Positions 1,047 to 10,206 of a DNA stretch of 10,206 bases are shown here, piece after piece. Location of the stretch: positions 1 through 10,206 of the forward strand of contig CAVNZM010000090.1 in assembly GCA_963693365.1 (NCBI GenBank). Direction: 5' to 3'. Position 1 is the first letter of the stretch. Each line of letters starts with the position of its first letter. The position numbers and the translations under genes are program-made. The DNA comes from Amoebidium appalachense. Its lineage: Eukaryota; Protista; Ichthyosporea. The notes beneath the pieces were generated by a model. It had not been told where the DNA came from. It worked only from the letters and a program-made list of their open reading frames with translations, and ran no database searches.

Positions 1047-1653
1047 TGTCGTGGCAACAAACAGAGTGTATACAAACTACTCTAACTATCTGCACGCTTA
1101 AAGGGGCTCGAAACTGTGTATACGTATAAACTTTTCTTTGAGTTGGGTGGGAAGCGAGAAAAACGAGTTCTTAGAAGAACTTCGAAAAGCCCGCGACCCC
1201 GCGAGACACTTCACAGACACGCGGCCCACTGGCCAGACAAATACCACAGTGACATTCAGCCAATCACAACACTCCCTCCCCCACAGACTACACGCACTCC
1301 ACACCATTGGCTACCGCGACCTCAGACACCCCTACAGCACTACAACACGTACACACGTTTACTCACAATACATATAAGCATACACACACGCGAGCAGGCA
1401 ACATGGGTCTCGCCACGCACACAGCAAGAAGCAATACAACATTTAACATGGAGAGTACGCAGAGGCATTGTGCATGCACGCGCGCACCTTTAACAATCAG
1501 CCGCCGCCGCATCAGGTTCTCCCCATACCACTGATTAATCTCCTCATACCCCACTTAGACCCCGGCATCACTATGCAAGAAAACCCCCGAAATTCACTCA
1601 CCAAAACACAAAATATAGAAGCAAACTAATACGAATCAGCTCAGCACATGACA
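1047..1653 (-). repeat. 3' LTR (607 bp) of the gag-only element
   Basis: Direct repeat of 3945-4551. No differences found by eye, and the ORF-track translations of the two copies are identical. TG...CA ends with a 6/7 terminal inverted repeat. Confidence 0.95.
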
Positions 1654-1663
1654 ACTCCCCCTC
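1654..1663 (-). other. Polypurine tract
   Basis: The minus strand reads GAGGGGGAGT directly before the TGTCATG start of the 3' LTR. Confidence 0.8.
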
Positions 1664-2056
1664 GCACAGAAAATAACTGAGTTCCACCTCAGTAAAAACT
1701 ACCTAAAAACAAAATAAAGTTATGTGCTGAGCGACTACAACTACCGCTACCCATGCAGGAAGCAACATTTAACATTTAACATATAACATAAAACATATAC
1801 ATGCATCCACACACCACCCCACCATGGTTAATACCCAACCCAACCCCAAAACAAGGATAATTATGAACCGCCACTGACGTTGCCCTGTAGATGCACCTCT
1901 GCCCCCGTCCACAACCTGCACCCAAAACCCCATGCCCCTGGCACAATGTTATATCGAGTGGAACATAGCAACAGACATGATAACAGACACCATCCATAAA
2001 ACCACACTCAGCATGCCCCATCCACAAAGAATATTCCTAACACAACCAAACATGCC

Positions 2057-2100
2057 GTGACGAACACCTCCAGACTCATGTGACGTACACCTCCAGACTC
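2057..2100. repeat. Tandem duplication, period 23 bp (2 copies)
   Basis: GTGACGAACACCTCCAGACTC (2057-2077) and GTGACGTACACCTCCAGACTC (2080-2100). Confidence 0.9.
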
Positions 2101-2250
2101 TCTTGCTGGCCATTCCTCTACCCGACAAAGACTCCTACTACGTAGGTCCCGGTGGTTTGGGAATGCCTCCGCCCCAACCGTGCCCTACCCAGCGGTGTGT
2201 CTAAGGCCTACTGCTGCACTGGGCACCACAACATTACTCAACAACACTAC

Positions 2251-2321
2251 GGGCAGCCACTCCAAAGGGCCTCAACACCAGGCCCAGGGCAGCCACTCCA
2301 AGGGGCCTCAGCACCAGGCCC
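2251..2321. repeat. Tandem duplication, period 36 bp (2 copies)
   Basis: GGGCAGCCACTCCAA(A/G)GGGCCTCA(A/G)CACCAGGCCC at 2251-2285 and 2287-2321. Confidence 0.9.
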
Positions 2322-2615
2322 TTTGACGACGGGGGTTCACAACAGTGGGGGCCTGCCACTGCCATGACTACACTTCGACCCCCCCCCCAGCCCCCTCGTC
2401 AGAGGGCCGAGCTCCCAGACAGCAGCAGGACTTTCTATTCCACTGACCCTAACCAGACACGTCGCCAACACAGGACTCATACACACGTCGAAAACGCCAG
2501 GCACCAGTAGAAAACTCAGCGAAAAAAACACACCACACAACTCCCATACAACAACAACTTGAACAACCCAAGAGACGGCCTACCCCCTAATAAAACCTTC
2601 ATACCTGCAACACGG

Positions 2616-3836
2616 TCACCGACGTCCCCCACGACGGGGCTGTTTGCACCACGCGTATGTGTGCCCCCGCTCCTTGCAGTTGTCGCAGGTGCCTGGGAAA
2701 GAGTCCGGCGCCGGCTCTTGCTGTCCCGCCCGACGACGCCAGCCTGGCCCATCATCCCGTTGTGGCCGTGGCTGGTAGGGCTGGTAGCGCCGTGGGGAGG
2801 GTGACCGCCGCCGGTCCCCTCTGAGGCCTCTGCCCTCCTCCCTCTCACGGTCCCGGTACCTGTCTCCTCTGTACCGGTCCCCCTCCTGGTCCTTCTCCTC
2901 CAGACGCTTGGTGAGCACAGCCACCTGCTTCAAGAGAGCAGTGAGTGTAGGCGTGTCCTGCCCAGCCCCATGCTTTACCTCCATGACCTCAGCAGCATGC
3001 TTATCCCTCATAGCCAGCTTACTCTCAAACTGCGCTAAAAACCGCCTCTTCACCGCCCTCCACGCCAAGTCTACCTCATGCTGCTCTTCATGCTGAGCAA
3101 ACAGCTCACCAAACTGACTGCTATCTACAAACAGAGAGCGAGCAGCATGAAACTTTCCACGAGCATCATTCTCCAACCCAGCAAGAAACACAAGAGCACG
3201 AAAATTTTCTTCGAACAGCTCAAAGTGGGTTCTAGCTTCGGTCACAGACATGGTGAGGGGGGGGTAAGTAAACTTAGCTTGTCTCAGATCAGCGTCAAAC
3301 TCCCGTCGTCGTCCGTCGTCCAGGTACTTGGCCACCGCCCTGTCAAGCCACTCAAGCTCATTCTCGGGGCGCAAAACCTCAACCACGTCCCCGGAGCCGC
3401 CCGTAACAATAGGCACCTGTGCGTTGGCCGCTTCGTAGCGGGCGGCCAGCTGGAGTGCGGCCGGGTTGCGGGCTCCACCCGCCACTGTGCGGGCGTACGC
3501 AACCGTGCGCACAGACGGCTCGTCGGTAGGCAGTTGTGTGCTTTCAAGCACCTTCTGGAACTCCAGCATTGAGGAGCCCACCGTGTTCATGATGAGTGTG
3601 GCCATCCTTCGAGGGGTTTGGACGTCCTTCCCCTCAGTGGCCTCTGCTGGGCAAACAGCCCTGAGCTTGCTAAGCCACCTAGGGAGGGCGAGGTCCTTAG
3701 CGAGGACTAAGTCCCCTGTGATACTAGTCCTACTGCTCATGTTGCCTATGCCAACTGTTGCTAGCTGTAGGCCTGTGTGTGCGTATGTTTCTTCTACCTC
3801 TAACTGTCGAAAAAGTCCTAAGTCAAAGCCACTCAT
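2616..3836 (-). CDS. gag: Retrotransposon Gag protein (406 aa from the first ATG) with a C-terminal CCHC zinc knuckle
   Basis: Longest ORF in the window, open from 3917 with first ATG at 3836, and located just downstream of the 5' LTR. The C-terminus CDNCKERGHTYAWC is CX2CX4HX4C and is preceded by an RD/RS-rich basic tract. The segment SVTEARTHFELFEENFRAL loosely resembles a capsid major homology region. Confidence 0.85.
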   Translation of the reverse strand: MSGFDLGLFRQLEVEETYAHTGLQLATVGIGNMSSRTSITGDLVLAKDLALPRWLSKLRAVCPAEATEGKDVQTPRRMATLIMNTVGSSMLEFQKVLESTQLPTDEPSVRTVAYARTVAGGARNPAALQLAARYEAANAQVPIVTGGSGDVVEVLRPENELEWLDRAVAKYLDDGRRREFDADLRQAKFTYPPLTMSVTEARTHFELFEENFRALVFLAGLENDARGKFHAARSLFVDSSQFGELFAQHEEQHEVDLAWRAVKRRFLAQFESKLAMRDKHAAEVMEVKHGAGQDTPTLTALLKQVAVLTKRLEEKDQEGDRYRGDRYRDREREEGRGLRGDRRRSPSPRRYQPYQPRPQRDDGPGWRRRAGQQEPAPDSFPGTCDNCKERGHTYAWCKQPRRGGRR

Positions 3837-3932
3837 AACCGCTAGGCGTAAAAAAAAAACTAGGGGTGAAAGCAACAGCCCAGAAGGACTAACAGTGCGT
3901 GTGCCCCCTCCCTGCAAAAAACTGCAGAGAAA

Positions 3933-3944
3933 GGGGGTGTAGCT
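3933..3944 (-). other. Atypical primer-binding-site region (AGCTACACCCCC on the minus strand)
   Basis: Occupies the PBS position immediately after the 5' LTR but lacks TGG. Partly complementary to LTR 4208-4230. The plus-strand GGGGGTGTAGCT resembles nt 1-12 of eukaryotic tRNA-Ala. Confidence 0.55.
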
Positions 3945-4551
3945 TGTCGTGGCAACAAACAGAGTGTATACAAACTACTCTAACTATCTGCACGCTTAAA
4001 GGGGCTCGAAACTGTGTATACGTATAAACTTTTCTTTGAGTTGGGTGGGAAGCGAGAAAAACGAGTTCTTAGAAGAACTTCGAAAAGCCCGCGACCCCGC
4101 GAGACACTTCACAGACACGCGGCCCACTGGCCAGACAAATACCACAGTGACATTCAGCCAATCACAACACTCCCTCCCCCACAGACTACACGCACTCCAC
4201 ACCATTGGCTACCGCGACCTCAGACACCCCTACAGCACTACAACACGTACACACGTTTACTCACAATACATATAAGCATACACACACGCGAGCAGGCAAC
4301 ATGGGTCTCGCCACGCACACAGCAAGAAGCAATACAACATTTAACATGGAGAGTACGCAGAGGCATTGTGCATGCACGCGCGCACCTTTAACAATCAGCC
4401 GCCGCCGCATCAGGTTCTCCCCATACCACTGATTAATCTCCTCATACCCCACTTAGACCCCGGCATCACTATGCAAGAAAACCCCCGAAATTCACTCACC
4501 AAAACACAAAATATAGAAGCAAACTAATACGAATCAGCTCAGCACATGACA
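3945..4551 (-). repeat. 5' LTR (607 bp) of the gag-only element
   Basis: Direct repeat of 1047-1653, followed on the plus strand by the TSD TACAC (4552-4556). Confidence 0.95.
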
Positions 4552-4556
4552 TACAC
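4552..4556 (+). repeat. Right 5-bp target-site duplication (TACAC)
   Basis: Matches 1042-1046. Confidence 0.93.
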
Positions 4557-4823
4557 GCATTTTGGGATATTGCCAGTACATTACTCATACGGTATATAGT
4601 TATTGGTGGTAGACCTGACATGGTATGACAATAATATAAAAATATTATGCCGATATTACGTCAATATTACAGTTCTATTACACTTCTATAGCGTCTCTAC
4701 CACAGAAAATCTCTACTCGCAATACATTGGCAATGGATAATTGATATTACTTCAGTATTAATCTGGTGTTTTTACGATATTGGCAATAGATAATAGCCTC
4801 ACAATATTGGCAATACCACGGGG
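4557..4823. mobile_element. Putative right end of a DNA transposon with subterminal palindromic repeats, ending ...CAATACCACGGGG
   Basis: TATTGGCAATA at 4778-4788 and 4805-4815, with variants at 4568-4578 and 4725-4735. 4560-4578 is a 17/19 inverted match to 262-280. There is an abrupt switch to GC-rich copia sequence shortly after 4823. The other terminus is not visible in the window. Confidence 0.45.
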
Positions 4824-4834
4824 AAGTTTGCTGA

Positions 4835-6351
4835 TGTCCCCAGCGTCTGAAATGGGAGGAGGCTGCACACCGTGAGCTCAAGGCCCTGGAAGACAACGGC
4901 ACCTTCACCCTTGTGCCCCGTCCAGAGGATGGCTCCACTGTCATTCCGGTCGGCTGGGTCTTTACGGTCAAGCATGACAACGTCGGCAACGTCACTGCTT
5001 TCAAGGCCCGGCTTGTGGCCCGAGGCAACTACCAGTAGCCTGGCCAGGACTATTTCGTCACCGAGTCACCTGTGGCTGCGCTGGCTACCATCCGGCTGGT
5101 TTTGGCTACCTCCGTGGCCCAAGGTCTGCCTCTGCGCCACATCGACGTGAACACAGCATTCCTCAAAGGCACCGTCAACGAGACCATCTACATTGAGCAG
5201 CCCCCTGGCTTCGTCAACCCCTCGGCCCCCCATGCTGTCGGCTTGCTCCACAAGGCGCTCTACGGCCTAAAACAGGCACCGCGCCAGTGGTATGAGGCCC
5301 TCCGTGACATCTCCTCGACCAAGGCTTCATTGTGAGTGCTGCTGACCCGTGCCTGTTCATCAAGAATGCCGGGACCCCAACGTTTATTGCCCTTGCTGCC
5401 TACGTGGATGACTTCACTGTGACGGCCGCCACTGATGCGCTCATCGACGATTTTTTCACCAAGCTGGATGCTCGTTTCTCTGCCAAGGACCTGGGTCGTC
5501 CTACCCTGCTCATCGGGCACACTCTTACCTGGCTGGAGGACGGGTCTCTGCGTCTGGGCCATCGTCAACACATCATCGACTTGGCTGCCCGTTTTCGTCT
5601 CACCCACATGTCCGGCACCAAGACCCCCATCGTCCCGGGCCAGGCCAGTGAAAGCAACAAGACCCCAGCCTACAGCAAGAAGGAGGACTATGCCAGCCTG
5701 GTCGGTGCCCTGCTGTGGATTGCGCGTACCACCCGCCCCGACATTTCCCAGGCTCTGGGAGTCCTTACTCGACACATTCATGCGCCCACCGTCACCCACT
5801 GGACTATGGCTACCAGAATTGTAAGCTACCTGCTGGCCACCATCGACCTGGGTATTGTCTACCGTCCCGGCCCCCCCACCCTTGTTGGCTACTCCGACTC
5901 CGACTACGCCGAGGACCGCAACACCCGGCGCTCCACCACGGGCTATGTCTTCTTCATCAACACCTCCCCTGTGTCCTGGGTGTCTCGGCTCCAGTCCATC
6001 ACCACCCACAGCTCCACTGAGGCTGAATTTGTGGCCATGTCTGCTGCTACGAACGAGGCCATATGGCTCAACTATGTGATGGACGACCTGGGCCTTAATC
6101 CTATCGATGAGCCCACCCCGGTGCCCATCCATGGGGACAATGAGTCTGCCCGGGCCCTGCTGGACACCCTGGGGGTTAAGCCCAAGACCAAGCACACCGA
6201 CGTCCGCTACTGCTCCGTCAAGGAACATCACCTGCTGGGCAACATCACTGTGGTCCCGGTGGCTTCTGCTGACAACAAGGCCGACATGTTCACCAAGGCC
6301 CTGTCTGCCTCTTTCTTCACCAAGGCCGTGGGGATGCTCAACATGTGCTGA
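4835..6351 (+). pseudogene. pol: Ty1/copia pol fragment: reverse transcriptase plus RNase H, 5'-truncated and disrupted
   Basis: RT motifs WEEAAHRELKAL, GWVFTVK, KARLVARG, HIDVNTAFL, LYGLKQAPRQW and YVDD. RNase H motifs GYSDSDYA..RRSTTGY, SSTEAEF, KHTDVRY and NKADMFTKAL. In-frame TAG at 5036-5038 and a 1-bp frameshift near 5309-5311 join ORFs 5072-5335 and 5332-6351. Confidence 0.95.
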
Positions 6352-6386
6352 GCACCCGTCATCAACCAACTGCGCCCTCGTACTTC

Positions 6387-6401
6387 AGGGGGGGGAGAGA
6401 G
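6387..6401 (+). other. Polypurine-tract-like run downstream of copia pol
   Basis: AGGGGGGGGAGAGAG, 35 bp after the pol stop codon. Confidence 0.5.
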
Positions 6402-6527
6402 TTGCATCCGACTGTGCAACTACGTGTACCATACTAAAATTGAGTAGGGGAATCTTTATTGTCTGTATTTTGTGCACCTGAAGCACTCGAGCTCAGTTGC
6501 ATTAATTCATACCACAATTATCCAATT

Positions 6528-6614
6528 GAGTAGGGGTGTTGGAGTACACTGGTACTCCCGGCTAGCAATGTCTCTTAGAGAAAGTTTCTGAGCAATTGAA
6601 TAATTGTTTCAACA
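6528..6614 (+). repeat. Probable copia PPT and start of the 3' LTR (TGTTGGAG at 6537); LTR end uncertain
   Basis: GAGTAGGGG (6528-6536) is followed directly by TGTTGGAG. A possible matching end TTCAACA lies at 6608-6614 but would give an LTR of only 78 bp. No second LTR is in the window to confirm it. Confidence 0.45.
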
Positions 6615-6903
6615 CTCACTCGAGTGCATAGAGCTTTTGTTTACGGTCATGTTCATATATGGTAGTTATATGTTTGAGCCAAAACTGTACCAATGACGAG
6701 CTTCACTAGCAACGTGCTAATTGTGCTCATTAATTAATATTCCCGGTTCAGATGATGTCATGTCTATATTTGCCACAGGATTCTATTCTTAGAGTGGTAG
6801 TGTGCTTTATTCCCGGATATTCTCTGTTGGAAGATGGTATCGTTATCCAGTCCGATCGCATGAATCAGATCATGATCGGCTGGTGGCCTGCGAGGTCTTA
6901 ACC

Positions 6904-6976
6904 GATCTCGTAGCTCAGTTGGTAGAGCACTCGACTGGAGATAGAGGGGTCGCGGGTTCAAATCCCGTCGGGATCA
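6904..6976 (+). tRNA. 73-nt tRNA-like gene, anticodon GGA (nominally Ser) on a short-variable-loop body; probably element-derived rather than a decoding tRNA
   Basis: Cloverleaf: acceptor GATCTCG/CGGGATC-A; D-arm GCTC-AGTTGGTA-GAGC; anticodon arm CTCGA-CTGGAGA-TAGAG with one G:A mismatch; 5-nt variable loop; T-arm GCGGG-TTCAAAT-CCCGT. A and B boxes intact. Confidence 0.85.
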
Positions 6977-6978
6977 TC

Positions 6979-6984
6979 TTTTTT
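6979..6984 (+). terminator. Pol III terminator-like T6 run after the tRNA-like gene (second copy at 7350-7355)
   Basis: TTTTTT two nucleotides after the discriminator base. Confidence 0.65.
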
Positions 6985-7114
6985 CTCATCCTCTCCTCGC
7001 TGGGGTAAAAGCCAGCACGCCTTTACTGGCGTCATCACAACCATCGGCAGTGGTTAGGTTGTGATCTCAAGGCTAGCAAGATCGCTAGTCTCTGCACCAG
7101 GACAAAATCCAAAA

Positions 7115-7127
7115 TGGTAGCATGAAC
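7115..7127 (+). other. TRIM primer-binding site, initiator-Met type
   Basis: TGGTAGCATGAAC directly after the 5' LTR. TGGTAGC is complementary to the ...GCUACCA 3' end of fungal and animal tRNA-iMet. Confidence 0.75.
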
Positions 7128-7186
7128 AGAGGTTCAGTGGGGACTGAGGGGGCAGTCCACCCTAACCTGATTCTGCGATTCGTCCT

Positions 7187-7195
7187 GAGTGGGGA
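7187..7195 (+). other. TRIM polypurine tract
   Basis: GAGTGGGGA immediately before TGTTGG of the 3' LTR. Confidence 0.75.
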
Positions 7196-7485
7196 TGTTG
7201 GAAGATGGTATCGTTATCCAGTCCGATCGCATGAATCAGATCATGATCGGCTGGTGGCCTGCGAGATCTTAACCGATCTCGTAGCACAGTTGGTAGAGCA
7301 CTCGACCGGAGATAGAGGGGTCGCGGGTTCAAATCCCGTCGGGATCATCTTTTTTCTCATCCTCTCCTCGCTGGGGTAAAAGCCAGCACGCCTTTACTGG
7401 CGTCATCACAACCATCGGCAGTGGTTAGGTTGTGATCTCAAGGCTAGCAAGATCGCTAGTCTCTGCACCAGGACAAAATCCAAAA
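7196..7485 (+). repeat. TRIM 3' LTR (290 bp)
   Basis: Direct repeat of 6825-7114 at an offset of 371 bp. Confidence 0.92.
7275..7347 (+). tRNA. Second tRNA-like copy (GGA), more degenerate
   Basis: Same as 6904-6976 except T>A at 7286, which breaks a D-stem pair in the A box, and T>C at 7307, which removes the near-invariant U33. Confidence 0.8.
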
Positions 7486-7716
7486 TCTCCGAATATTTTT
7501 AGTTGTGTGAAGTAAGATTTACGTTTAACTGCAATTGGTGTGTTAAACACGTTTATTTGTGTGCTTTAGTGCAAGTTTACTAGCCACTCAACGTGCACAG
7601 TTAACTTTTATATCTTTAACGACTTGTTTTCATTGTGCTCTCTTTTCGGCTATGCTGCCAGTGTACATGGCCCACCACCAGGGTGCACACGAGGCCACCA
7701 TGAGGTGGCCAACAAC

Positions 7717-7724
7717 TATATAAA
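7717..7724 (+). promoter_or_regulatory. TATA-box-like TATATAAA
   Basis: Consensus match, preceded by a 7-bp inverted repeat GGCCACC-ATGA-GGTGGCC (7693-7710). Confidence 0.3.
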
Positions 7725-7815
7725 GCAGTGCCTCCCATGTCACAAACATGGGAAGCAGAACGTTTGATTTACACTTTTCTACTGTCGTATTCAGTGCACA
7801 AAACACATAGACTAG

Positions 7816-8085
7816 TTACCCATCATACACGAAACTATATCTGATAACTTACAGTTGCAGCAACTAGTCCAACTACTGGAGCAGAGGTTGGCCTCACAAG
7901 ATGCAATCATTTCTGACTTACAGAAGGAACAACGTGCACTAGAACTAGCTTCTATGAAGTTTCCACAATGTTCAACAGTTGCCCCCCCCCCCCCCCCCCC
8001 ACCCACCCCAAATAAATATTCCCTTCCTTCCACCCTAAAACATGCAACTCACCAGCTTGCCCATGATCTTCACAACGTATCATGA
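7816..8085 (+). CDS. Possible short coiled-coil/polyproline exon or gene remnant, unknown function
   Basis: Open frame reading LQQLVQLLEQRLASQDAIISDLQKEQRALELA, which is heptad-like. The polyproline comes from a C19 run at 7982-8000. No clear ATG start. Confidence 0.25.
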   Translation, partial: LPIIHETISDNLQLQQLVQLLEQRLASQDAIISDLQKEQRALELASMKFPQCSTVAPPPPPPPTPNKYSLPSTLKHATHQLAHDLHNVS

Positions 8086-8606
8086 TGGGCCCTCCTGCGG
8101 CGTCACCGAAAACAGTAGGGGGGTCACGGTTGTGCTGTTGGCGTCAATGTGCAGCGCACTGAGCAGCTCCACAAGGTGTGCAACACACGTGTCTGCATCT
8201 AGGACCGCCTTGCATGGCATGTGCATTTGTCTTGCTGCCCATGCTCGGCAGGCCCAGCGGAAGCACGTGGGGCGGGGAGGCCTTGGCGTCGGCAGCGTAT
8301 GACCCTACCAACACTTCTCTGCCGTTGTCTTCCACCACGGCCAACCGCAACTGTGCCAGTGAATCATAATACATGATCACTACACAAACACACACATACA
8401 TAATGCAGCATAGTGTCAAAAACCCGATATTCCCATTATACATCAAACCACCATCCACGAAACAGCTTGTTCAAACACCGAAACCTATGTCCTGTGGAAA
8501 CAAACCGTGTGTGCATAAATTGAAAGACACAGACAATGTGCAACATGCACTGTGACACCGGGGCTGATGCTGCCAGCATGCCTTGAAAAGTATCTTTCTT
8601 GGCCCA

Positions 8607-8990
8607 CTAGGGGGCAGATTGTGCACTGTCATCCACCGCCCTACCCTCTTCCGATCCACGACCGTTCTTCTTCTCTCCTTTCTCATTTCCCTTATCTCCC
8701 TCCTCTTGCTCACCCTCCTCCCGCTCTTTCTCTCCTCCATCCTCCTGTTCTGAGTCACTTCCATCATCATCATCCTCTTCCTTGTCGTGGCGGGATCCCT
8801 CCTGTGCTCGTGCCTCCTCCATGTCGCTACCCTTCGAGTCATCACTCGCATCACTGGCACTCACGACATGTTCAGCAATCGACAGCTTAGCGGCGGGCTT
8901 TCTGGATGTGATCTGGACTCGTTTGCCGGTTTCTTGGGTGTGGGTTGTGGGTCCGGTATCGAACTGTCCGCTTAGCCTACTTTTTTCTTT
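8607..8990 (-). CDS. Acidic low-complexity exon of an unknown spliced gene or pseudogene (boundaries approximate)
   Basis: The frame is open upstream of ORF 8607-8864 (SGQFDTGPTTHTQETGKRVQITSRKPAAKL...) and runs into a D/E/G/K-rich tract with strong purine bias, ending at TAG. Confidence 0.4.
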   Translation of the reverse strand, partial: KEKSRLSGQFDTGPTTHTQETGKRVQITSRKPAAKLSIAEHVVSASDASDDSKGSDMEEARAQEGSRHDKEEDDDDGSDSEQEDGGEKEREEGEQEEGDKGNEKGEKKNGRGSEEGRAVDDSAQSAP

Positions 8991-9384
8991 GCATCGCTGA
9001 ACCCAGTAAGGGTCTCAATGAAGTCCACAAAACCAGACATTGTGCGACCCTGTGAGATAATGTTGTTAGATGGGCTACGAGATAACAATGAATGTGACAT
9101 GCTGCTTTTTTTTTTTTTAGTTTGTATGTTTTTGGGCTGGAGGTGGGTGGGTGGGAGAGACTCTTTCAACCTCCTGGCAACATAGACCTGTGTCAGAAAA
9201 TCGAGGGATCTGCATCAATTTCAACACTTTTTTTTCCCGTTCGTTTACATCCTAAATTATACCCTCGGAATGGCTACCGGTATAAGTTTTCAACACATAG
9301 CCCAGTAGCCAATTTTTGATAGGGGCGTTTACAAGTTTCTTTAAGGTGTGATAATTTACACTCTATAGTGATATGTAAGCTTAC

Positions 9385-9513
9385 CTTCTTCGAGTCGGCA
9401 TCTGCAGTGGCGTCCCCGTCATCCCCCTCCGTCAACAAATACAGGAGTGCTTTGCACACCCAATGGTCCTGCTTTGGTTTGTAGCCCGCAGCTGTAATTT
9501 TATTCCAGAACTG
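9385..9513 (-). CDS. Internal exon (43 codons, QFWNKITAAG...DADSKK) of an unknown spliced gene
   Basis: Flanked by acceptor TACTCTTCAG and donor AAG|GTAAGC. Open and in frame with the upstream exon 9544-9641. Confidence 0.5.
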
Positions 9514-9543
9514 CTGAAGAGTAAACAATTACGTGAACCTTAC

Positions 9544-9641
9544 CGACATGGGATCCGAGCAGAGCGTGTACTTCTGCATGAGGTAATCGAAAGCGGTGGT
9601 GCAGTCGATGCCGGGAGAGGTGTGCAAGTCTAGGAATGGCC
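9544..9641 (-). CDS. Internal exon (PFLDLHTSPG...CSDPMS) of the same unknown gene
   Basis: Acceptor CTTTTCATTGCAG ends at 9642 and donor GTAAGG starts at 9543. Open frame and GC-richer than its flanks. Confidence 0.5.
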
Positions 9642-9759
9642 CTGCAATGAAAAGTATGAGAAACAACACCAATATAAATTATGTTTCAGAGGGAGAAACG
9701 TGTACATGATGATGTTTGTGTGTACATGAATATCTTCGGTTACAACTGTGTTTTCGTGT

Positions 9760-9862
9760 TCGTGTTTTCTGTCCTGCTTTCTTTTCTTTTTCCTCCTTCT
9801 TCTTCTTTCTTTTCTCTTTCTTTTCTCCCTTGTTTTCTTTCACATAATTATACTTCTTTCTC
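9760..9862 (+). repeat. Pyrimidine-rich (T/C) low-complexity tract
   Basis: Runs of TTTTC and TTC. Confidence 0.75.
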
Positions 9863-10206
9863 ACTAATATACGTTGAGTAGGTTTGTATTACTCGTTATG
9901 TTTTGATTGGTAGGAAAACACTTAGGCTACACTTTAGCTTGTCATGTATGATTCATAGCTTAGTCAGCCACTTTTATTTTGTGTGTTGCCGTACTGTATC
10001 CAATCAGTAGACTTAGTCAGAAAATGTCTGAGTCTTTGTAGCCGGTGATAGGTTAGAAACATCACCTCTTTCCTCGTTACTTTTCACCTCATTACTTTCT
10101 TATAGCTGTGACAAAATAAGGAGCCATCTCAGTAGGTGGCAGCAACGCAACTCGCATTTGGCACATGCACGTCGAGGTACCAACGTCTGACTCATATACC
10201 TACACT

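Follow-up and report, generated by a model that had tools for sequence, protein, structure and literature searches.

The 10,206-nt stretch of Amoebidium appalachense DNA analysed here (the window) carries a 661-bp miniature LTR retrotransposon (TRIM) with a tRNA-like unit in each LTR; the insertion lies in a broken Copia element, within its 3′ LTR. With a probability of roughly 0.6, it is a dispersed non-coding TRIM of the Helenus type that RNA polymerase III (Pol III) likely transcribes from the tRNA-like unit of its 5′ LTR and that Copia proteins likely copy and insert. The class itself is already known: Helenus (TRIMp3), which comprises TRIMs with tRNA-derived sequence in their LTRs, was described in 2024 (Kojima 2024; PMC10886601). 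Assignment of the element to this class is supported at the level of sequence, where it fits the published definition on every point that could be tested; the TRIM structure and the kinship to Helenus named in an earlier note on this DNA agree with that definition. According to the same paper, Helenus elements measure 311-1263 bp and are hosted by fungi, animals and Selaginella, the fungal families showing 5-bp duplications and Copia-type primer sites and the animal families 4-bp duplications and Gypsy-type sites (PMC10886601).

Structure of the element

The window contains, in this order, TCTC, a 290-bp LTR, an 81-bp internal part, a second 290-bp LTR and TCTC, with 661 bp between the two TCTC. 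The features of the element and of the Copia sequence around it are as follows.

4838..6351, +: RT/RNase H fragment of the broken Copia element that hosts the insertion (RVT_2 matches)
6528-6536, +: Copia polypurine tract (PPT) (sequence)
6537..7977, +: Copia 3′ LTR, about 776 bp without the insert, with the TRIM inside (loose ends at 6537 and 7958; right end 7977 read from the sequence and approximate)
6821..6824, +: left target-site duplication TCTC (empty-site joint)
6825..7114, +: 5′ LTR, 290 bp, TGTTGGA...TCCAAAA (sequence)
6825..6903, +: U3-like part, 79 bp, preceding the tRNA-like unit; putative role
6888..6897, +: anti-acceptor arm, 5′ copy, complementary to nt 1-10 of the tRNA-like unit, with a 6-nt loop (folding)
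6904..6976, +: tRNA-like unit, 5′ copy, GGA anticodon, without a long variable arm (ARAGORN, Rfam); A box at 6911-6922 and B box at 6955-6964
6979..6984, +: T6 run of the 5′ LTR, likely a leaky Pol III terminator
6985..7114, +: U5-like part with four predicted hairpins at 6999-7016, 7017-7032, 7034-7065 and 7070-7091 (folding z)
7115..7122, +: primer-binding site (PBS) TGGTAGCA, directly abutting the LTR (sequence)
7115..7195, +: internal part, 81 bp, non-coding
7187..7195, +: PPT GAGTGGGGA, before the 3′ LTR (sequence)
7196..7485, +: 3′ LTR, 290 bp
7259..7268, +: anti-acceptor arm, 3′ copy (folding)
7275..7347, +: tRNA-like unit, 3′ copy (ARAGORN, Rfam); A box at 7282, B box at 7326
7350-7355, +: T6 run of the 3′ LTR (sequence)
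7486..7489, +: right target-site duplication TCTC (empty-site joint)

This layout, with its coordinates and its TCTC pair, had been described in the earlier note and is exact in the sequence. The 81-bp length given there for the core stands as well, but the PBS and PPT, which had been counted in addition to it, lie within the 81 bp. The two LTRs terminate in AA, not CA, at their 3′ ends, and a recount of their mismatches returned the 3 of 290 positions already reported (1.0%), located at 6895/7266, 6915/7286 and 6936/7307. The longest ATG frame of the TRIM covers 85 aa and has no match in Pfam, in keeping with the earlier description of the element as non-coding.

Dispersal, empty site and age

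At least half of the words of 6500-7800 are present in 20 of 24 listed public runs, which carry four organism labels. In all four runs examined over 6300-8000, a joint leads from 6820 directly to 7486 with 4 ambiguous letters, skipping 665 bases, that is, the element plus one TCTC. These empty sites are other copies of the surrounding repeat, the Copia 3′ LTR, and hold a single TCTC. Dispersed copies, which the earlier note had proposed as a check, are seen in the same public data: among the loose ends listed (9 of 17 rows), three different flanks begin at most 3 bases from the LTR 3′ end and different flanks also precede the LTR 5′ end. The element is marked both by a duplication within the 4-6 bp range of Helenus, with an empty site in 4/4 runs, and by copies with other flanks; the length of the duplication is known for the window's site only. 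None of the contigs listed bridges the filled site of the window.

Because an empty site with one TCTC occurs together with several other flanks, the element is confirmed as a member of a dispersed family, and hence as a real mobile element and not a local duplication. The family looks young and abundant. A 251-base stretch inside the TRIM matched 143, 106, 1 and 9 contigs in four runs, and in two of these 106/143 and 80/106 contigs were at least 99% alike to it. The order LTR-PBS-internal-PPT-LTR lies on single contigs of other runs, and even in run X5 (1.85 million contig letters) the TRIM unit is assembled, at 370 bases and with one T less. Two tRNA calls at a distance of 371 bp are what a tRNA gene duplicated locally in tandem, or an artefact of the assembly, would also leave; this explanation is refuted by the empty site in 4/4 runs and the different flanks, is further opposed by the full element order on single contigs elsewhere, and retains a negligible probability. 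Pattern scans of metagenome and viral contigs returned chance matches only, and the TRIM is found in 0 of the 125 loci listed (120 of about 410 from metagenomes, plus 5 viral).

A separate observation concerns positions 7138-7152 in runs X1 and X4, where one copy of the TRIM seemingly holds an insert with a tRNA head and an A tail. Of two loose ends, one follows 7152 and begins like an A box, and the other, rich in A, precedes 7138, which would amount to a 15-bp duplication. This putative SINE is pieced together from two separate contigs, and a 1117-nt contig of X4 also breaks there.

The tRNA-like unit

ARAGORN calls a 73-nt tRNA-Ser(GGA) at both 6904-6976 and 7275-7347, and the Rfam tRNA model, with a gathering score of 29 bits, gives 62.2 bits for the 5′ copy and 50.8 bits for the 3′ copy. 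The calls and the located boxes bear out the 73-nt unit with A and B boxes that the earlier note had placed in each LTR. The 3′ copy has a mismatch in the D stem (7286) and a C in the place of the invariant U33 (7307), and the same C is present in the single long contig of run X6. Ser tRNAs carry a long variable arm. The variable loop of the present unit is 5 nt beside a GGA anticodon, anticodon and body thus disagreeing, and the nearest control tRNA genes are of Lys/Phe types (55-56/73 identical). Since the GGA anticodon sits on a body without the Ser-type long variable arm, the unit is unlikely to work as a tRNA and would rather serve as a promoter. The T6 behind it is the sole run of at least 4 T per LTR on the + strand, with T5 in its place in many other copies among the public-run contigs. 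Helenus-type families inflate tRNA gene counts, as shown in rust fungi (PMC10886601), and here do so by false Ser-GGA calls.

Copia or Gypsy as probable helper

The Copia fragment that hosts the insertion is 5′-truncated and carries one stop and one frameshift. It is 90% and 83% identical to the intact Copia polyprotein P0121; named Copia relatives are at best about 34-37% identical, and no relative was found in viral contigs. The first 7 LTR bases of the TRIM equal those of the surrounding Copia LTR, the two PPTs are alike, and other copies of the Copia LTR end in TCCAACA, one base from the TCCAAAA of the TRIM. The PBS follows the LTR with zero spacer and starts like several fungal Helenus internal parts. 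With the points on both sides weighed, a Copia helper is favoured over a Gypsy helper by about three to one.

Mobilisation of the same TRIM by Gypsy proteins, which has been put forward for animal Helenus, is unlikely on balance, though it would agree with the 4-bp duplication at the window's site, since the duplications stated in the available parts of PMC10886601 are 4 bp in all animal families and 5 bp in all fungal and plant families. The AA end of the LTRs likewise counts against Copia, although a few fungal Helenus LTRs end in TA, by eye in the accessible part of the supplement of PMC10886601, so non-CA ends do occur; and beyond the termini the TRIM has no similarity to the Copia LTR. 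On the other side, the resemblance of the TRIM to Copia and to fungal Helenus extends to the type of PBS, the zero spacer, the start of the LTR and the PPT, and most animal Helenus have at least one base before the PBS (Fig. S2 of PMC10886601). Moreover, the 4 bp come from one site, where a 5-bp TTCTC duplication with one T lost would fit as well.

Proposed transcription and priming

Because Pol III initiates upstream of what becomes the 5′ end of the mature tRNA, its start in the TRIM is more likely to lie some bases upstream of 6904 than at this position. Oligo(dT) makes Pol III terminate, and RNase P and RNase Z cleave pre-tRNAs (PMC10498592), so that a genomic RNA headed by a tRNA faces two problems. 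The main text of PMC10886601 discusses neither passage of a T run nor tRNA processing for Helenus.

We infer that Pol III is used, and propose that it would start at or slightly before 6904, would sometimes pass the first T run and would halt at the second, a leaky terminator being the simplest answer. The product would be an RNA about 450-460 nt long whose repeated end is the tRNA-like unit. A hairpin between the end of U3 and tRNA nt 1-10 would prevent the acceptor stem of the 3′ copy from forming, and that of the 5′ copy too if the start lies at least 12 bases upstream; with the acceptor stem lost, RNase P and RNase Z would leave the RNA uncut. The 3′ end of a host initiator-Met tRNA would then prime at TGGTAGCA, and the PPT would prime the plus strand. 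No complement to the PBS exists in the TRIM's own tRNA or LTR for self-priming. Contigs of runs X6 and X9, which we guess to be RNA, span LTR-internal-LTR and were not counted as evidence of transcription. The run contigs show neither where an RNA begins nor where it ends.

A point that speaks against Pol III is the T5-T6 run, which is an efficient Pol III stop in yeasts and may stop the enzyme too well here. Its position directly behind the tRNA unit would suit transcription of the TRIM by Pol II, starting in U3 or reading through from the host Copia element, in which case the tRNA unit would be a passenger SINE head or a source of short RNA and the hairpin a by-product of local inverted duplication. 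For 8% of the control genes a masked acceptor stem is predicted, and Pol III transcription has been validated for no Helenus, by that paper's own statement (PMC10886601). However, the TRIM lacks TATA and AATAAA-type signals, its A and B boxes are intact, and similar hairpins are seen by eye in several Helenus lineages in the available published sequences, all of which makes transcription by Pol II improbable.

The predicted anti-acceptor hairpin and RNA folding

Folding predicts a hairpin of 10 bp with a 6-nt loop, 7259-7268 being paired with tRNA nt 1-10, and the predicted probability of the acceptor stem falls from 0.89/0.97 for the unit alone to 0.0 with U3 in front, the switch being complete once 12 upstream bases are included. 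In a test chosen after the fold had been inspected, shuffles of U3 paired equally well in 7/2000 and 8/2000 cases. The duplex energy of the hairpin was reached by 1/237 control tRNA genes with the same D arm, and masking by 20 upstream bases was predicted for 16/197; the control set consists of 237 usable phage and prokaryote tRNA genes, after 11 had been dropped (near an end, containing N or duplicate). In full-length RNA both acceptor stems are predicted to be lost whatever the start, and the model thus fails to demonstrate a need for the hairpin; the 100-nt folds of hairpin plus tRNA are no more stable than shuffles (z -1.5, -1.6). By folding, the small hairpin would likely shield the RNA from tRNA-like cutting.

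The U5-like part is strongly structured (z -4.55; z -4.02 in a second test, with 0/200 shuffles as good), and is a candidate packaging or primer-presentation signal. Long-range pairings of the trailer with the PPT and of U5 with the internal part lie within the range of shuffles (130/2000, 156/2000).

A hairpin of at least 8 pairs across the same border seems clear in about 30 of 58 LTRs of supplement parts 5 and 7 of PMC10886601, a count made by eye, uncomputed and unfolded, over families that are not independent, with parts 2-4, 6, 8 and 9 available as snippets. The clear cases come from fish, coelacanth, bivalves, ribbon worms and one mushroom-forming fungus; in the same parts the hairpin is partial in about 6 wasp LTRs, and A-U, G-C and G-U pairs appear to be exchanged in it among fish families, both by eye. 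It is not obvious by eye in the rust-fungal LTRs of supplement part 1, as far as available. The word "hairpin" occurs 0 times in the main text of PMC10886601, and no earlier report of a Helenus hairpin was found in literature consisting largely of papers free of subscription, with Repbase and Dfam outside its scope.

Tentatively, and with the odds rather against the proposal as a whole, tRNA-bearing TRIMs may share an unreported trick, in which U3 would end in an antisense arm that binds the initial bases of the tRNA-like unit and unfolds it, and RNase P and RNase Z would leave the RNA whole. The trick would then have arisen independently in the present element, in a eukaryote lineage beyond the Helenus hosts published so far, a possibility that the earlier note also raised; its helper would be of Copia type and would leave duplications of 4 bp at LTRs that end in AA. 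The hairpin is a lead worth following. A family that looks young and abundant and has a single defined T run and a single defined hairpin makes two questions testable, namely how a Pol III RNA passes the terminator that it carries and how a genomic RNA shaped like a tRNA avoids being processed as one.

Neighbouring sequence

A second, very young LTR element lies at 1047-4551 on the - strand, with identical 607-bp LTRs (TG...CA) and a 5-bp duplication TACAC. A single gag-like frame (2616-3974), which includes a CCHC knuckle, is present, whereas pol is missing; the frame has no match among 1.84 billion representatives. The bases beside its 5′ LTR lack a TGG start and would form an odd primer site, as they look complementary to a tRNA's 5′ end. 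This element splits an AT-rich repeat (1-420 and 4552-4815) with recurring ATATTGGCAAT motifs and inverted copies (262-282 with 4558-4578); the repeat is possibly a DNA transposon end. At 8100-10100 on the - strand, short exon-like frames with GTAAG donors accompany a long acidic stretch (8607-9014); three pieces examined within this region have no match in Pfam.

Comparison with known systems

Retrozymes are small, structured, non-autonomous LTR elements like the present one, which lacks the hammerhead ribozyme of retrozymes. Replication of the TRIM through self-cleaved circular RNA would accord with its short, non-coding LTR form and its strongly structured U5-like part. Such a course is nevertheless very unlikely: a hammerhead core is absent from both strands, no ribozyme family is matched at E up to 10, and the circular joint in run X5 is the usual assembler product for any two-LTR repeat. 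Retrozymes are named in the discussion of PMC10886601. As a separate matter, the published wasp LTR Helenus-2_SyUm-LTR (Data S1 of PMC10886601, available in part) has by eye an apparent hammerhead core behind its tRNA unit; the main text of that paper names hammerheads only in a reference title.

tRNA-derived SINEs share with the TRIM a short, non-coding form and an internal A/B-box promoter, but they are without LTRs, PBS and PPT and insert by target-primed reverse transcription. A SINE2 element has a single tRNA head, a body, a simple-repeat tail and no LTRs, whereas this element has two LTRs, a PBS and also a PPT. Cassandra (PMC7215508) and Ajax (PMC10886601) are likewise non-coding TRIMs whose LTRs each contain a Pol III promoter. 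Their LTR sequence is derived from 5S rRNA, whereas here it is tRNA-derived, and no match to 5S rRNA is found in the element at E up to 10. Cassandra also differs in its land-plant PBS TGGTATCAGAGC (PMC7215508, available part), the primer site of the TRIM not being of the land-plant type.

The closest system is Helenus. The element is a TRIM of less than 1 kb (661 bp with two 290-bp LTRs) and falls within the range of 311-1263 bp given for Helenus in PMC10886601; two 10-base probes taken from it have no match in the supplement of that paper. It differs in joining a 4-bp duplication with a fungal, Copia-type PBS, in LTRs that terminate in AA, and in the position of its tRNA unit, which occupies the 5′ half of the LTR and is followed by a structured tail of 130 nt, but is placed near the 3′ end in the fungal families examined. 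It agrees with Helenus in that each LTR contains a tRNA-like unit with its A and B boxes, in having a candidate PBS, a PPT before the 3′ LTR and a disagreement between isotype and anticodon, and in encoding no protein for its mobilisation; the first 8 bases of its PBS recur in several fungal Helenus, and the PBS start is shared with families such as Helenus-1_CCin, -1_AmAr and -5_PSt.
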